DNA from: Octopus vulgaris
Lineage: Eukaryota
DNA: 64,000 nucleotides
Assembly: GCA_951406725.2 (NCBI GenBank)
Contig: OX597823.1
Coordinates: 81,530,001 to 81,594,000 of the forward strand
Direction: 5' to 3'
The position numbers and the translations under genes are program-made. The notes under the pieces are model-generated. The model was not told the origin of the DNA. It worked only from the letters and a program-made list of their open reading frames with translations, and searched no databases. Shown here piece by piece: positions 12,850-43,637 of this stretch. Position 1 is the stretch's first letter. Every line of letters begins with the position of its first letter.

Positions 12850-13228
12850 ATTTTATTGTCTTTACACAGCTTCTAATGTTGGAGATGTACTATGGTGTCA
12901 GCTGTTCACTACCAGTGAACTAAGGTAACACTCCTTATTTTTCAAGCACCATCCTGAGCATTTGAACAGTTCCAACCAGTATTGTTTTCTGCAGGTGCTC
13001 CACCCTTATTTTAGCTCCTATTTGTTCCATGTACTCAAGATTTTTACTCACAGTTCCCAGGGCTCCGACAATTATTGACACTACTACCACCTTTTTCAGT
13101 GACCACAACTGCTTAACCTCCCAAGCCAACCTGTTATATCTATCGACTTTTCTTTCTTCCTTATTGCACATCTTGTTCTCAGCTGGGCATGCAGTATCTA
13201 TGACCCAGCATCGTTTGCTTTCTTTCTC

Positions 13229-13229
<1 letters not shown>
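12850..13229 (-). mobile_element. R4/Dong-clade non-LTR retrotransposon 3' fragment (restriction-like endonuclease C-terminus) in (TAA)n
   Basis: CWVIDTACPAE...KEERKVDRYNRLAWEVKQLWSLKKVVVVSIIVGALGTVSKNL...LQKT; short 3'UTR; (TAA)n on both flanks, the known Dong target. Confidence 0.8.
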
Positions 13230-13276
<47 letters not shown>

Positions 13277-14109
13277 GAGTGAGAGAGCAGTGCATGCCAT
13301 CAAAGTGATGGCATGTAGTAGTGCCAATTATTATTATCATCATCATCATCATCATCATCATTATTATTGTTATTATTACTATTATTATTGTATTTTATAT
13401 TGGCATAATGTCACTGAAATGCAGGAGAATGGTGTTAAAGCAATCTGATAATACGACAAATAATTGTTTTATTAACTCCCCCCTCCTCCTCCTCTTTCTC
13501 TTTTTGCATGGATGATGGAAAATGAAGTCAGAAACAACTGTGGATGTAGGACGTAAAAAGCATGACATTAAATAACTAGATACTTACCGTAAAACATTTA
13601 GACTAATGTTCTATAATTCATTATATCCCACCATCTTTTAAATACAAAAAGTATAACAACAACAAAAAATAGTTATAGTAAATAGCAATTTGTAAATGTT
13701 ATTACTAACATAAATCTTGTCAATTATTGGGAAAAAAATTCTCTCAAATCATCTCTTAAATTTTTCATTAAAAAATGAGTTGCCAATTAATAATTTTAGA
13801 GTATATTCCGAATTTTATTGCATTTAATGTAAAGTTAATGTAAATTAGGTTCTTATATTATATTTATACTTTTTCATCTTAATTTACACATGACCTTATG
13901 TATAATTATTGTAGATTTCTAGCTAAAAAAAAAAAGAAAACCTACAAAATATTAAATATAAACTGAAGTAAAAAAAATGACTCACAATTTAAAGGCAAAA
14001 TATTCAATACATAATTGCAGAGTGGATGTAGGTATTTAAAAAATAATGACTCTTGTAAAACAAGTTACATTTCCTTCTGTACAGTATTTAACCTTGTGTG
14101 CATGTGTGT

Positions 14110-15030: not shown

Positions 15031-15696
15031 CACTTTCCTGGAGGCTTTCTAACAAATTCTTACTTATTAGAAAGTGAAATGACCCACGTTACATGATGAA
15101 AACAGTGATGTTTGGGGGTAAGAATCTGATGTTTTAGGGATACATAAAAAGTGATGGTTCAAGAAAGTTGGTTAAAATTGATGGTAACTTGAATAGTGCC
15201 AAATACATCCAGTTGCTGAAGGACAATTTGATACCAGACTTGGATGAAGGTGAGATCTTTCAGCATGATGGAGCTCCATGCCACAGATCACGTGCAGCAC
15301 AACAGAGTCTGACTGATGAAGGTGTTACTGTATTGGAACATTGGCCAGCTCAGAACCATGACTTAAATATCATTGAGCAAATGTGGAAAGAACTAAAGAG
15401 AAGTGTTTGTCAGAAGAATCCACTCAATCTTGAAGAGTTGCAGGAGCTCAGCCACAGAGAATGTCATCTCATACCTGTGAAGATAGTGAAAGATGTGTAT
15501 GCATCTCTTCCTAGGTACATTAGAGCAATCATTCAAGCTAAGGAAAGCCACATGAAATATTAACAATGTACAGTAACTTTTTGAAATGAACATTATGTAA
15601 TAAATTTTTATTATCAACATTTTTCTATCTTAAAACTGTATCTTGATTGGTTTATGCGAGGTGGCTGAAAACTTTAGGAAAGCCACCTTTTGTGGT
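15031..15696 (+). mobile_element. Tc1-family transposon 3' remnant (DDE catalytic part)
   Basis: ORF 15168-15563 with IFQHDGAPCH and WPAQNHDLNIIEQMW (Tc1 QDNDPKH / SPDLNPIE equivalents); stop codon upstream. Confidence 0.85.
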
Positions 15697-17989: not shown

Positions 17990-19380
17990 TATATAAGAAA
18001 GCACACTTTTTTCGTTTTCAATGGTAATATCATTTCCAGTGTCTAACTGCATTTTTACTCTTATATTTTTAATTTTTACTTTTACAAATTATCTCTTTGT
18101 TATATTACCATTTTCTTTCGGTGACATACTGTTTGTTCCTTTTTCTTTGTTCCAACATTTTTTCATCTTGGTTTCACAGTGCATTTTCATTGTGTCCAAT
18201 TTTTCCATAATGGAAGCATTTCTCTTTCTTAAATGGATAGTTTTTCCTCAGGTGTAGACCTCCAAATGCAAAACATGGGATTTTTTCCTGATTCTTGTCC
18301 TGTTAGTACTGTATTTTAGTACACGCTTGATATCTATTCTGCCTATTTCACACTTGTTTCACTTGGGTGCAATCTTTATGCTCAATTTTCACTGTCTTGT
18401 CTTAAATTTACTATTCTTTCACACTCTTCTGACACTTGTTGTAAGGTTACAGCTTGGTTTTATTCCAGCTTAGCGAGACTTCTTGTTCTTACTTCCGTAT
18501 CTTTCTCTGCAGTTAGTCCCTGAGTAAATATCAGGCACTTGGACTGCTTGAACTTTTCACATTCCCTGTTAACTCTACCTGTATATGTGATGTACTCCTC
18601 CTCCTCCTCCTCCTCCTCATTCTTTTCTAGGTTCAAACAATTCCAATGTGTATTGAACAGTGAGCTTTTCTCACTAAAAATTTTACCCAGTATGTCTATT
18701 GAATCTTTAAAGTTTATGTCAGAAGGTTTTCTCAGGAGTATGTAATTGTTGTAACACTCATGCTCTCCTGCTGCCAGTTTTCGTAATATTAAATGTGTTT
18801 TTATATCGTCGTCCCAGTCTTTGCACTCTTTATTGAAGATTTGTTTGTATCTTCTATAGTAAGCCACGAAGGTAACTCCTTCATCTGGTTCATACTTAAA
18901 CTCTGTTATTGAGTTCACAACATAATCTTGTGAGAACATTTTTTCATTATTTCCTGACGACTTACTATTCATTAATTGCAGCATTTGTTGCTGTAATAGA
19001 AATTGTTGTTGTTGTTGCCTCTGCTGTTCTGCTTGCAGTTGTAGCTGCTGCTATTGTTGTTCTTTCAGTTATTGTTGTTACTGTTTTTGCAACTTGAGCA
19101 AACTAACCAACAAATTTTTCATAATTTTATGATTCTTTTTTTTCCTTGTGAGTTTGTTAATTCCTCATCACCACTGTTGTAATCCCTAATGTCAGATTGT
19201 TATAATGCTCACTCTGGTATAGCAGTGTAGTTAGTAAGACCAGTAAAAACATGACTATCTAGGACTGTCTACTTTGTACTCTCTTCTAATACTGACCGAT
19301 GTCAGCTTATCTGTAGTGACTAGGACATACCACTTGTGACACGGGAGGGGTGTATCATTATTACTATTATCCCCATAACA
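17990..19380 (-). mobile_element. Ty3/Gypsy (Mag-like) remnant: 5' LTR, PBS and decayed gag
   Basis: Putative LTR TGTTAT..ACAACA (19380-19175). PBS TGGTGATGAGGA at 19173-19162. Q-rich gag start, FKYEPDEGVTFVAYYRRY..LRKL domain, and two decayed zinc knuckles (PCFAFGGLH..KCFHYGKIGH). Confidence 0.78.
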
Positions 19381-26173: not shown

Positions 26174-26698
<525 letters not shown>

Positions 26699-26848
26699 TA
26701 AAATAAATATAAGAGAGTGTTCACTATATTGATCACTCTAGCACCAGTTAATCCAAGAGGTTTCAACCACGAAAAATACATGTTTCCCATGAAAGCCGGT
26801 ACGACTGTTAGCTCACACGGACAGGGCAAATAAAAAATAACAAAAATA

Positions 26849-26942
26849 CAGATTATTTTGGGACAATTGTTTCGCTATTAATGAATTAAATGTAATATTA
26901 CTTACAGTAATCCATTTGTAGCTCTTCAGCCAAGACTATCTG
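26849..26942 (-). ncRNA. Type I hammerhead ribozyme (array copy 1)
   Basis: Reverse complement of the motif at 28422 (gggacaattgtttcgcta...tagctcttcagccaa). Confidence 0.9.
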
Positions 26943-27382
26943 GATGAAATCCACTCAATCACACGCCAGATTTTACCATAACGATAAATACGCGTGCGGT
27001 TCAATTGATTACATCGGACGTTATAATTCAAATGCCCCAACCAACAGCGCGCCAAACTCTCATGGAAAACAAATACAGCATTTAGAAATAAATGCAGCAT
27101 AATTATAATTAAATAATAAGGGTGAGAGAATTAGATACTAATTTAATAGTACATTTATTCCACACCAAGTGGCCTAGTGCTACGAGAAACCTGGATTATT
27201 ATAATATTTTATAACATATTATAATATTTTCACAAAATAAATATAAGAGAGTGTTCACTATATTGATCACTCTGGCACCAGTTAATCCAAGAGGTTTCAA
27301 CCACGAAAAATACATGTTTCCCATGAAAGCCGGTACGACTGTTAGCTCACACGGACAGGGCAAATAAAAAATAACAAAAATA

Positions 27383-27476
27383 CAGATTATTTTGGGACAA
27401 TTGTTTCGCTATTAATGAATTAAATGTAATATTACTTACAGTAATCCATTTGTAGCTCTTCAGCCAAGACTATCTG
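27383..27476 (-). ncRNA. Type I hammerhead ribozyme (array copy 2)
   Basis: Same motif, +534. Confidence 0.9.
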
Positions 27477-27916
27477 GATGAAATCCACTCAATCACACGC
27501 CAGATTTTACCATAACGATAAATACGCGTGCGGTTCAATTGATTACATCGGACGTTATAATTCAGATGCCCCAACCAACAGCGCGCCAAACTCTCACGGA
27601 AAACAAATACAGCATTTAGAAATAAATGCAGCATAATTATAATTAAATAATAAGGGTGAGAGAATTAGATACTAATTTAATAGTACATTTATTCCACACC
27701 AAGTGGCCTAGTGCTACGAGAAACCTGGATTATTATAATATTTTATAACATATTATAATATTTTCACAAAATAAATATAAGAGAGTGTTCACTATATTGA
27801 TCACTCTAGCACCAGTTAATCCAAGAGGTTTCAACCACGAAAAATACATGTTTCCCATGAAAGCCGGTACGACTGTTAGCTCACACGGACAGGGCAAATA
27901 AAAAATAACAAAAATA

Positions 27917-28010
27917 CAGATTATTTTGGGACAATTGTTTCGCTATTAATGAATTAAATGTAATACTACTTACAGTAATCCATTTGTAGCTCTTCAGCCA
28001 AGACTATCTG
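27917..28010 (-). ncRNA. Type I hammerhead ribozyme (array copy 3)
   Basis: Same motif, +534; one substitution in the stem II loop only. Confidence 0.88.
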
Positions 28011-28421
28011 GATGAAATCCACTCAATCACACGCCAGATTTTACCATAACGATAAATACGCGTGCGGTTCAATTGATTACATCGGACGTTATAATTCAAA
28101 TGCCCCAACCAACAGCGCGCCAAACTCTCACGGAAAACAAATACAGCATTTAGAAATAAATGCAGCATAATTATAATTAAATAATAAGGGTGAGAGAATT
28201 AGATACTAATTTAATAGTACATTTATTCCACACCAAGTGGCCTAGTGCTACGAGAAACCTGGATTATTATAATATTTTATAACATATTATAATATTTTCC
28301 GTGAGAGTTTGGCGCGCTGTTGGTTGGGGCATTTGAATTATAACGTCCGATGTAATCAATTGAACCGCACGCGTATTTATCGTTATGGTAAAATCTGGCG
28401 TGTGATTGAGTGGATTTCATC

Positions 28422-28515
28422 CAGATAGTCTTGGCTGAAGAGCTACAAATGGATTACTGTAAGTAATATTACATTTAATTCATTAATAGCGAAACAATTG
28501 TCCCAAAATAATCTG
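28422..28515 (+). ncRNA. Type I hammerhead ribozyme (array copy 4)
   Basis: Stem I CAGAT-agtc-TTGG / CCAA-aata-ATCTG. Core CTGAAGA at 28435-28441. Stem II GCTA..AATGGATTA.TGTAA[gtaata]TTACA..TAATTCATT..TAGC. GAAA at 28491. Palindromic stem III ACAATTGT. GUC triplet, predicted cut after 28502. Confidence 0.9.
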
Positions 28516-28955
28516 TATTTTTGTTATTTTTTATTTGCCCTGTCCGTGTGAGCTAACAGTCGTACCGGCTTTCATGGGAAACATGTATTTTTCGTGGTTG
28601 AAACCTCTTGGATTAACTGGTGCTAGAGTGATCAATATAGTGAACACTCTCTTATATTTATTTTGTGAAAATATTATAATATGTTATAAAATATTATAAT
28701 AATCCAGGTTTCTCGTAGCACTAGGCCACTTGGTGTGGAATAAATGTACTATTAAATTAGTATCTAATTCTCTCACCCTTATTATTTAATTATAATTATG
28801 CTGCATTTATTTCTAAATGCTGTATTTGTTTTCCGTGAGAGTTTGGCGCGCTGTTGGTTGGGGCATTTGAATTATAACGTCCGATGTAATCAATTGAACC
28901 GCACGCGTATTTATCGTTATGGTAAAATCTGGCGTGTGATTGAGTGGATTTCATC

Positions 28956-29049
28956 CAGATAGTCTTGGCTGAAGAGCTACAAATGGATTACTGTAAGTAA
29001 TATTACATTTAATTCATTAATAGCGAAACAATTGTCCCAAAATAATCTG
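28956..29049 (+). ncRNA. Type I hammerhead ribozyme (array copy 5)
   Basis: Same motif 534 bp downstream of 28422. Confidence 0.9.
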
Positions 29050-29489
29050 TATTTTTGTTATTTTTTATTTGCCCTGTCCGTGTGAGCTAACAGTCGTACC
29101 GGCTTTCATGGGAAACATGTATTTTTCGTGGTTGAAACCTCTTGGATTAACTGGTGCTAGAGTGATCAATATAGTGAACACTCTCTTATATTTATTTTGT
29201 GAAAATATTATAATATGTTATAAAATATTATAATAATCCAGGTTTCTCGTAGCACTAGGCCGCTTGGTGTGGAATAAATGTACTATTAAATTAGTATCTA
29301 ATTCTCTCACCCTTATTATTTAATTATAATTATGCTGCATTTATTTCTAAATGCTGTATTTGTTTTCCGTGAGAGTTTGGCGCGCTGTTGGTTGGGGCAT
29401 TTGAATTATAACGTCCGATGTAATCAATTGAACCGCACGCGTATTTATCGTTATGGTAAAATCTGGCGTGTGATTGAGTGGATTTCATC

Positions 29490-29583
29490 CAGATAGTCTT
29501 GGCTGAAGAGCTACAAATGGATTACTGTAAGTAATATTACATTTAATTCATTAATAGCGAAACAATTGTCCCAAAATAATCTG
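29490..29583 (+). ncRNA. Type I hammerhead ribozyme (array copy 6)
   Basis: Same motif a further 534 bp downstream. Confidence 0.9.
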
Positions 29584-29857
29584 TATTTTTGTTATTTTTT
29601 ATTTGCCCTGTCCGTGTGAGCTAACAGTCGTACCGGCTTTCATGGGAAACATGTATTTTTCGTGGTTGAAACCTCTTGGATTAACTGGTGCTAGAGTGAT
29701 CAATATAGTGAACACTCTCTTATATTTATTTTGTGAAAATATTATAATATGTTATAAAATATTATAATAATCCAGGTTTCTCGTAGCACTAGGCCACTTG
29801 GTGTGGAATAAATGTACTATTAAATTAGTATCTAATTCTCTCACCCTTATTATTTAA

Positions 29858-33099
<3,242 letters not shown>

Positions 33100-40545: not shown

Positions 40546-41704
40546 CTTTGCTTGTTATCTTTTGGTCTCCTTGCTACAACAGTATGGATGATACTCATTT
40601 TCAGCTGACTGAACTGAGCAATGTTAAATGACATGCTTTGCCCTTGGCCAAAATGAACAACTGAGTCCAGGAGTTGAACCTACAACATTATAATCATGAG
40701 CACAACATTCTAACCGCTAGACCACATAATTGTTATGCTGTGGTTATTAAAGACTCTACAATTCTGTTTCCAGAGGCTTTTTCAGAGGCACATGGGTTAG
40801 TGATTAGGGGGATTTGGCTCACAAGTATAAGTTTATGAGTTTGATATCTGAAGGCACATTGTGTCTCTGAGCAAGATGCTTTATCTTTATTTAATGTTGA
40901 TCCATTTCACTCAACTGGAAAAAATGGGTAGTACCTGTATTTCAAAGGGCCAGCCTTATTACATCCTGTGTTGCACTAAATCTCCCTGAAAATAACATTA
41001 AGGGCATGCATATCTGTGGCGTGCTCAGCCACTTGCACATTATTTCATTATTTTTACAAGCAGGATCAACTGGAACCCTTGTCATCATAACCAATAGAGG
41101 GCCAGTTAGCTTTCTTGAGTAATCCTTACTAAATCTCATTGCCAATGTTTGTCTTTATTAAAATTTGGTGACATTCTCCAAAGTAGTGCTGTTTACTTTG
41201 ATTAGTGAAGCACATACTTAAGTGTTGGCTAGGAGTTACCAGCTCCAAAAGTTTCTCTGCTTAACATTCACTGGGGACGTTGGAGCAAAAGGTGGGAGAT
41301 TAAACTAAAACATAATGAAATATAGGTGAATCATGTATGTGATGAGTTTAATGGTCTGTTGTATGCCAACCATTAAGCACAGCAAAGATATGAGTTTCAA
41401 GTATGTGTCTACAAGAGAGCTGGACACCTGGATAACCTGGTGAAAATTAATGTATGTATATCAATATTAATATCAATATATATATATATATATTTATGAG
41501 AGGTTTTGGTATCCAGAAGACCCAAAATGGCAGGTAAGGCTATGTAAGTGTTATGGAAGGACTGTAGTTTAGTTTGACTCCTGGTTCAATAATAGTTTGA
41601 GTAAGGAGTCTAATGCAGGTTATGTGTATGTATATGTTAAATAAAATGAGACAACAAAGCCAAGGCAGTGTGAACTTTCTAGGACATTTATAAAGAGAAA
41701 GGTA

Positions 41705-41752
41705 GTCTTACAGTTGTTTCAGGTATATGAGGGATATCGCTTCATCAGAGAC
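41705..41752 (-). ncRNA. Inverted sister hammerhead (stem II with two mismatches)
   Basis: Reverse complement reads GTCT CTGATGA AGCGATAT ccctc ATATACCT GAAAC AACT GTA AGAC. Confidence 0.7.
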
Positions 41753-42015
41753 AATATGAAAGAGTCAAATAGAGGGAAATAGTAGAGTACAATATAAAAA
41801 GTTATTTCTTATTCTTTTATTCTCTTATTTCCGTTTATATTCTCTATATCTCTTGCTTCCCAAAACAGAGATGACGTGAGAGAGTTAAATAGAAGGAAAT
41901 AGTAGAGTTCAGTATAAGAAGTTATTTTTTACTCACCTATTTCCCTTTATACTCCCTTTCCAAAATAACTTCTTATATTGAACTACTATTTCCTTCTAGT
42001 TAGCTCTCTCATATT

Positions 42016-42063
42016 GTCTCTGATGAAGGGATATCCCTCATATCCCTGAAACAACTGTAAGAC
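42016..42063 (+). ncRNA. Minimal type I hammerhead ribozyme
   Basis: GTCT CTGATGA AGGGATAT ccctc ATATCCCT GAAAC aact GTA AGAC: full core, perfect 8-bp stem II, stem I GTCT/AGAC, GUA triplet. Confidence 0.85.
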
Positions 42064-42688
42064 TACCTTTCTCTTTATAAATTTCCTAGAAATTTAACAC
42101 TGCCTTGGCTTTGTCGTCTCATTTTATATAACACACACACACATACATATGTATACACATTTATGTACTCACACACTCACATATGTATATATGTTTAAAT
42201 ACGTATAGATATATATTTATGTATATATGCATGTGTGTGTATATATATACATATTATACATATCTGTGTTGTGTGTGTGTTCTTAAATGTCTCTTTACAT
42301 TTCACACCACTTGACAAGAAAAGTGTCCCATAACTTAGCAGTTCAATAAATAGAAATTGTTAAAATAAATACTAAATTAAAAGATATTAAGTATTGAGGT
42401 CAATATGATAAACTAAGATCACATTAAGGAAAGTGCTCCAACATCGCTGCAGTCAAAAGATAGAACCAAATAAAAGGGAATATATATGCATTTATAGAAA
42501 GACTTTTTTCCCCCTTCATCTGATATTATATTTATTTATTTATTTATTTGCAATCTCTCCTCTTTCTTTCTTTCCTTTTTTAGCACCCTTTCTCTTTTCT
42601 CCACTGCCAAATATCTGACCACCCCCTCCAACTCTTTATTCTGGAACCTAAAGATTTTCTCCTGCAATGCTTCATATTTATACCTATA

Positions 42689-43571
42689 TGAGGTCTGATC
42701 AATAAGTATCTGGACTGTTGCCATAGTAACGAAGCTAAAGCACACAGAGTAAAGCTGCTTGGCACAGATTGACCTTGAACTTTGCTGTGCATGCACACTA
42801 AGTTTTAACATTATAGCTCACTTCTGCTTTTTACAGCAGTGTTTGAAAGGAATGTGTGTAGCGTGTAATCGTCACATTGACCATGACAGAGAAAGTTGTC
42901 ATGGCGATACCTGCTCAGAGGCTTGCGCAAAGTTGTAGAAAGTATATGGAGAGGAGTGTATGAGCTGTACACAAGTGTATGAGTGGTTCAGATGTTTCCA
43001 AGATGGCTGAAAAAATGTTGGTAATGATGAATGTTCTGGGAGACCCACAAACAGCAGAACTGAGAAAAACATTGCAGAAGTGTGTGCAGCTGTGAAGGGA
43101 AATCGTTGAATCACCATCTGTGAGTTATCAGAAGATGTGCAGATTAGTTATGGTCCAGTTCAGTCCATTATCACTGAAGATTTGGGTATGAGACACATTC
43201 CTGTCAAGTTTGTGCCAAAACTGCTTTCAGCTGACCAGAAAGACCCTCAGGTTTCAGCTGCACAAGATCTCCCTGATTGTGTCAAGAATGATGAAAACTT
43301 TGCATAGGCCCCTGAACGGGTATTGCCAAGCTTTTGGCAAAATTTGGTGCAGATTCTTGCTCAACTTACTCCATCATAGTCAATGCAACAATCACACGCT
43401 ACACACCTTCCTTCGAAGAATTGCTGTAAATAGCGGAAGTGAGCTAGAATGTTAAAACTTAGTGCTCATGCACAGCAGAGGTCAAAGTCAATCTGTGCCA
43501 TGCAGATTCACTCTGCATGCATTAGCTTCGTTACTATGGCAACAGTCCAGATACTTATCGATCAGACCATG
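42689..43571 (+). mobile_element. Mariner-derived non-autonomous element with about 210-bp TIRs and TA TSD
   Basis: 42689-42898 and about 43362-43571 are inverted repeats flanked by TA. Interior encodes a decayed mariner N-terminus (VYEWFRCFQDG, SGRPT, LGMRHIPVKFVPKLL) and no catalytic domain. Confidence 0.88.
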
Positions 43572-43637
43572 TACATGTACGTGCATATACTTCCATAAGA
43601 ACATGCATGCATTTTTGCATGTATCAATACTAGTCAT

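Follow-up and report, generated by a model that had tools for sequence, protein, structure and literature searches.

Two back-to-back arrays of a hammerhead-bearing 534-nt repeat in a (TA)n tract suggest insertion of a retrozyme-type parasite by a Penelope-like element enzyme

A 534-nt repeat occurs six times in the AT-rich 64-kb window that we analyzed (the whole stretch of Octopus vulgaris DNA, to which all coordinates refer), arranged as two back-to-back sets of three and enclosed by (TA)n, with the array measuring 3163 bp. We consider it probable, at roughly 0.6, that this is the array of a retrozyme-type parasite that arrived in one insertion event, during which the enzyme of a Penelope-like element (PLE) cut both strands of the target and primed from both sides. 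The array combines a signature known from PLE insertions with retrozyme-type units, in an unusually symmetric three-plus-three form, and we found no report of this combination. The inverted head-to-head layout within (TA)n is itself a published PLE hallmark, a point that a preliminary description of this locus had missed, and it likely links PLEs to suspected RNA parasites.

Until now, the movement of retrozymes from RNA circles via PLE enzymes has been argued from co-occurrence and from likeness to pLTRs, and the origin of the inverted head-to-head insertions of PLEs has been called unresolved in the available portion of PMC8557442 (here and below, papers are cited from the portions of their text available to us). 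Both questions could be tested from one long-read genome, since insertions of a very high-copy family record the number of laps, the junction, and the two points of priming. The features that carry the argument are given below, with unit positions numbered from the predicted hammerhead cleavage site.

26177 to 26699, no strand: left (TA)n tract, with G interruptions on the + strand and a TT slip at 26333 followed by a G 11 nt on
26700 to 28299, − strand: left arm, 1600 nt, or three units less 2 nt, from unit position 165 (at 28299) to 162 (at 26700)
27063, 27274, 27565, and 27966, − strand: transitions private to the left arm, from the comparison of arms
28138 to 28294, − strand: spacer, 157 bp of ordinary left-arm unit sequence (unit positions 170 to 326), unmirrored beside the junction
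28295 to 28299, no strand: head-to-head junction with microhomology TTTTC, unit positions 165 to 169 antisense and 327 to 331 sense
28295 to 29862, + strand: right arm, 1568 nt, or three units less 34 nt, from unit position 327 (at 28295) to 292 (at 29862)
29262, + strand: transition private to the right arm, from the comparison of arms
29863 to 30728, no strand: right (TA)n tract, with G interruptions on the + strand and, at 30098 to 30109, the same marker of a TT slip with its G 11 nt on

Judged by features at the level of sequence, the unit resembles the non-LTR retrozymes of animals. It has a GC content of 33.5% and a longest stop-free frame of 69 aa, and all six copies passed a descriptor of the hammerhead core plus stems. 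The motif combines a CUGAAGA core with a long stem II, the sequence GAAA, a minimal stem III of a single pair capped by a palindromic loop, and a GUC triplet where cleavage is predicted, and it lies at three sites in each arm:

26849 to 26942, − strand: type I hammerhead motif, core at 26929, predicted cleavage at 26862
27383 to 27476, − strand: type I hammerhead motif, core at 27463, predicted cleavage at 27396
27917 to 28010, − strand: type I hammerhead motif, core at 27997, predicted cleavage at 27930
28422 to 28515, + strand: type I hammerhead motif, core at 28435, predicted cleavage after 28502
28956 to 29049, + strand: type I hammerhead motif, core at 28969, predicted cleavage after 29036; the computed fold (z −2.7) contains both stem I and stem II
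29490 to 29583, + strand: type I hammerhead motif, core at 29503, predicted cleavage after 29570

Rfam returned no matches at gathering score for the 64-kb window and three chance matches by E-value, none of them a hammerhead; the long stem II is probably the reason for this miss. Folded as a predicted circle, the unit reaches −151.5 kcal/mol (z −6.5, with 0 of 40 shuffles as low) and leaves the hammerhead stems free. The antisense strand scores comparably as a circle (z −6.6), and the circular fold score therefore does not fix polarity. Since 534 equals 178 × 3, we considered an endless open reading frame on the circle and rejected it, as all six frames contain stops. An exact 24-mer pattern scan found no matches in metagenome contigs, and a pattern scan of viral contigs found none either. 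A looser hammerhead pattern gave 55 metagenome matches and 5 in prokaryote genomes; as the unit is absent from all 60 of these loci and none satisfies the descriptor, we regard those matches as chance.

The unit shares with described animal non-LTR retrozymes (PMC7229834; PMC7761336; bioRxiv 10.64898/2026.07.22.740005) its noncoding tandem repeats with one type I hammerhead motif each, a GC content below 50%, a self-paired predicted circle, few units per array, and, in relatives of the sampled animal, high copy number. At 534 nt it exceeds the 150 to 450 bp first described and falls within the 51 to 972 bp given in bioRxiv 10.64898/2026.07.22.740005. The available portions of PMC7229834 and of that preprint describe tandem arrays, without inverted double arrays, microsatellite targets, or junctions, and the available text of bioRxiv 10.64898/2026.07.22.740005 gave no match for “orientation” or “junction.”

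The preliminary description had placed an inversion junction with 5 nt of microhomology between the two arms, and this proved exact: TTTTC at 28295 to 28299 is common to both arms and is bounded by mismatches at 28294 and 28300. Its spacer of about 157 bp, measured from a mirror point near 28137, likewise holds, because the mirror point of 28295 is 28137 and 28138 to 28294 spans 157 bp. As it had also stated, hammerhead sense points outward on both arms, with cores on the − strand at left and the + strand at right, so that, read in the sense of the hammerhead, each outer end is a 3′ end, and these ends abut (TA)n at different points of the unit, position 162 at left and 292 at right, 130 nt apart in unit coordinates. 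Both positions end a 12-nt stretch of pure A/T, as 5% of positions do. The junction is not palindromic and contains no residual TA.

We are highly confident that the array and its junction are a real genomic structure. The competing possibility, that a fold-back read or a mis-join between repeats produced them during library preparation or assembly, draws on the presence of long repeats between long TA tracts and on the window's own junction, for which there was no bridging contig among those listed from four relatives' runs. Against it, the outer flanks are unique and different, the interruptions of the TA tracts are unmirrored, the arms differ in length and in variants, and a comparable joint, from 28213 to 28379 in reference coordinates, appears in two studies. 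Taken together, we consider an artifact extremely improbable.

The same asymmetries bear on whether one arm was copied from the other. It has been proposed that head-to-head Penelope copies arise by self-priming (PMC3846280), and here a single priming might have been followed by fold-back of the cDNA (or of antisense RNA, as suggested for rotifer Penelope) at TTTTC/GAAAA and by copying back with a slip between repeats. Fold-backs usually take this form, a spacer with a brief stretch of microhomology. However, the opposite arm offers only 1438 nt of template for the 1568-nt right arm and 1196 nt for the 1600-nt left arm. Because each arm is longer than the template available in the other, a one-step fold-back is excluded, an extra slip would be needed, and priming from both sides of a break in (TA)n becomes the best reading. 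In addition, only five differences, all transitions, separate the units over 3163 bp; every one is confined to a single unit, and none has a counterpart on the other arm. The junction lacks a palindrome, and other joints in the family show 0 to 3 nt of homology. The TA tracts are not mirror images, since the G interruptions lie on the + strand in both, and their outer flanks are different unique sequences, which also argues against a fold-back read. We therefore judge a fold-back with slippage very unlikely.

Priming from both sides is what would be expected from what is reported of PLE enzymes. An inverted copy is often found at the 5′ end of PLE insertions, for which (TA)n is a favored target (PMC8557442, PMC8969392), and head-to-head is the commonest PLE form, for which antisense self-priming has been proposed (PMC3846280). 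For an anole PLE, the purified protein, a predicted dimer, was shown to cleave AT-rich sites on both strands and to extend each of them (PMC11167929), and PLEs have been proposed to copy retrozymes from circles (PMC7229834; bioRxiv 10.64898/2026.07.22.740005). We think it quite likely that this retrozyme was moved by a PLE, and likely, with somewhat less assurance, that two primings took place. This is the part of the preliminary description's mechanism that survives, because a one-step fold-back is excluded by length, head-to-head joints recur, and the PLE protein extends both strands; its further claim that microhomology joins the two products does not extend to a rule, given the 0 to 3 nt found in 11 other joints.

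Under the reading we prefer, the unit would be transcribed, cleave itself, and circularize. The GIY-YIG/RT protein of an unseen PLE would then nick both strands of the self-complementary (TA)n, each 3′-OH would prime at an AT-rich point on the RNA (positions 162 and 292), and each enzyme would copy about 1.6 kb, or about three laps. Finally, the cDNA 3′ ends, TTTTC and GAAAA, would pair, each serving as primer for second-strand synthesis on the other; elsewhere in the family, the ends seem to have been joined blunt or with a few extra bases between them. Several observations count against this scheme. The outer ends lie 130 nt apart, compared with the optional PLE tail of 30 to 40 nt that separates two fixed RT start sites. 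In vitro, the anole PLE primes without target homology and prefers uncleaved RNA (PMC11167929). Among 92 stop-free frames of at least 75 aa in the 64-kb window, no Pfam match to a PLE RT or GIY-YIG domain was found, and we rejected an autonomous EN+ PLE as the identity of the element, which has no RT/GIY-YIG ORF.

The template is the least certain part of this reading, and we would place a circular RNA a little short of even odds. Both arms stop close to three whole laps, 2 and 34 nt short, which about 0.4% of independent random stops would do, and their lengths agree to within 32 nt, as in about 2% of independent uniform truncations; both figures are post hoc and come from one locus. Near-equal arms are expected from two enzymes on one circle. 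A dimeric PLE enzyme might have cut both (TA)n strands while its two RT sites chased each other round a single 534-nt ribozyme circle, yielding nearly equal arms whose 3′ ends annealed, a picture that we offer as a rather doubtful one. If true, it would make the array a genomic fossil of circular-RNA retrotransposition and would explain head-to-head PLE insertions. If instead a passenger element simply bears the usual PLE signature here, the array would still lend direct structural support to the PLE link and would be no surprise.

Alternatively, the same enzyme may have made two primings on a linear multimer transcribed from a tandem array, either a single RNA of at least six units or a pair of RNAs with about four units each. 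Relatives show abundant tandem continuity, the anole PLE works in vitro on unprocessed RNA (PMC11167929), and “dual priming” by two RNAs has already been proposed for L1 (PMC2837659). Yet three to six intact hammerhead motifs would have to stay uncut in such a transcript, and on one linear RNA the 5′ end of each arm should abut the other's priming site, from which it is instead offset by 165 and 127 nt. Moreover, no variant is common to several units here, though the family is diverse in relatives. Given these points, we consider a linear template unlikely.

Comparison with known systems helps to place the two-priming reading. Complex EN+ PLE insertions (PMC8557442, PMC3846280, PMC11167929) share the head-to-head inverted copy, partial tandems, a hammerhead near the repeat, a (TA)n target without a readable TSD, and AT-rich 3′ joins. 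The octopus array differs from them in having no ORF, in having arms that are both multi-lap and nearly equal in place of one short truncated copy, in its asymmetric junction without a palindrome, and in outer ends that differ by 130 nt, compared with the tail of 30 to 40 nt. The preliminary description had likened the locus to twin priming. That likeness extends to the two inverted fragments, to an internal 5′-to-5′ junction with short or no microhomology, and to outer ends that would be primed 3′ ends, as in L1 twin or “dual priming” (PMC2837659). L1 twin priming proper fails, since both arms repeat one sequence, whereas the fragments of an L1 are different parts of one linear mRNA, and since poly(A) is lacking; the locus also shows no L1 nick motif and no readable TSD. 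It stands nearer to “dual priming” or to a pair of enzymes sharing one circle. Nonautonomous PLEs of the Chlamys group such as MRC1 (PMC8557442) are also noncoding PLE passengers with multicopy insertions, and the group targets microsatellites; unlike the array, they are described as head-to-tail, come from an alga, and mostly lack hammerheads. Among the titles and abstracts listed in our literature searches, none dealt with head-to-head retrozyme arrays or with PLE twin priming, and the available portion of PMC9977147 holds nothing on head-to-head copies.

The target region is consistent with repeated use by mobile elements. A 5′-truncated LINE (30729 to 32561, − strand) occupies the same TA region; it has an open frame of 582 aa (RVT_1, E 1e-30) and an (AATC)n tail, its full-length relatives carry an endonuclease domain, and its closest named relatives are from the octopod Argonauta hians. 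We considered this LINE as a possible mobilizer of the array; it has its own (AATC)n tail, is separated from the array by TA, and nothing links the two, which leaves it an improbable candidate. The longest and purest TA tracts in the window (26177 to 26711, 29859 to 30728, and 32563 to 33099) flank these two young insertions, which would fit either an attraction of insertions to long TA or an expansion of TA upon insertion. The array has no readable TSD, and any TSD would be hidden within (TA)n. In each of its tracts, a long uninterrupted run occurs together with a TT slip that has a G 11 nt beyond it, and the two markers are oriented alike (26333 to 26344 and 30098 to 30109); they may represent a long target duplication, or may be due to chance.

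That one TA tract also holds a LINE might favor a different history, in which two independent insertions entered the hotspot in opposite orientations and were fused by a deletion at 5 nt of microhomology; microhomology-mediated deletions do occur in Penelope copies (PMC3846280). Against two insertions, the arms are 99.3% identical and equally young, no TA is left at the junction, and such joints recur at other loci. Had a simple inversion taken place within an array of six units, a further junction of tail-to-tail type should remain, and the locus has none. We find either route scarcely credible.

Copies in public sequencing runs from relatives show how far the family shares this structure. 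Part of the unit was found in 20 of the 24 public runs listed, from 10 studies, with a best share of 0.76; none of the 24 is on record as RNA, and these counts have no bearing on expression. We aligned four runs (X1, X2, X4, and X16) to window positions 28138 to 28666, which hold every unit position once together with the junction. Matching contigs in these runs numbered 2205, 399, 3106, and 21, with a summed depth of up to about 1e6 in three of them. The family is very large in relatives, to which alone these copy figures refer. Six near-fixed positions distinguish their copies from the window copy, and the runs therefore represent neither the same animal nor the same subfamily.

Both joints of tandem (head-to-tail) continuity were present in all four runs. 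A contig that jumps from the left part of this reference to its right part represents a head-to-head inversion like that in the window, and at least 13 distinct antisense-to-sense joints of this kind were seen at depths of 15 to 54 (six in X1, seven in X16, and none in X2). One joint from X1, the one at 28213 to 28379, also occurred in X4, which belongs to a different study. In the 11 rows with a value, microhomology was 0 in seven (five with letters between the two sides), 1 in two, and 2 and 3 in the others, no more than chance would give. The 5-nt microhomology is thus not a family rule. By chance, at least 5 nt would be shared in about 1% of random inversion joints of a 534-nt unit, and, from that per-joint figure, at one or more of 14 joints in about 13% of cases. 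Head-to-head joints recur in the family, and their breakpoints are scattered.

Some caution applies to how these joints are read. Their short sides are only 20 to 32 nt at 88% likeness, 3 of the 13 break within an internal palindrome of the unit, and one run contains a palindromic linker, so that ligation chimeras are possible in that run. No tail-to-tail joints occurred among the joints listed. However, about 18 strand changes within a half would be expected beside 13 joints across halves, and there were none of these among the joints listed either; the lack of tail-to-tail joints in that list therefore gives no measure of polarity. Across the 14 junctions (the window's and the 13 others), breakpoints were not close to one another in the predicted RNA fold (P 0.39). 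We also looked for clustering of breakpoints and found none (P 0.09 and 0.74), the pile-up near positions 161 to 165 not being significant.

The relatives also bear on where the outer ends fall. The preliminary description had expected circularly permuted ends, and the two arms of the window do end differently. Free permutation does not follow from this, as the one other TA-joined end among those listed, in one contig at a depth of 2.9, stops at position 162, as the left arm does, and continues in TA-like letters. This shared end is a weak hint of priming points that might be preferred and not freely permuted. Separately, X4 and X16 have a loose end behind window position 28542, 40 nt past the cleavage site, with the same divergent 22-nt continuation, which is either a subfamily or the point of parting from the pLTR of a related autonomous element.

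Several other elements were noted in the window. A second hammerhead element, unrelated and older, lies at 41643 to 42127, with inverted arms (41643 to 41807 and 41963 to 42127) that are 91% alike, cores pointing outward, and an additional inverted piece (41866 to 41957) in its spacer. Its two 3′ ends stop at a single point, next to TA/CA repeats; from its sequence it looks like an old head-to-head pair of solo pLTRs. This second case of an outward-facing inverted layout beside a microsatellite adds some support to the main reading. Beside (TTA)n, a frame at 12935 to 13327 (− strand) has only weak, unrelated matches in Pfam, and we take it to resemble the C-terminal restriction-like endonuclease of R4/Dong-type LINEs. 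There are also a piece of a DDE_3 transposase (15138 to 15563, + strand), a DUF7083 piece (18460 to 19050, − strand), and an exon of the Arf family (1126 to 1464, + strand). Finally, an element at 42681 to 43579 has 218-nt inverted arms that are 84% alike, and its inner frame presumably resembles a piece of a mariner-type transposase.
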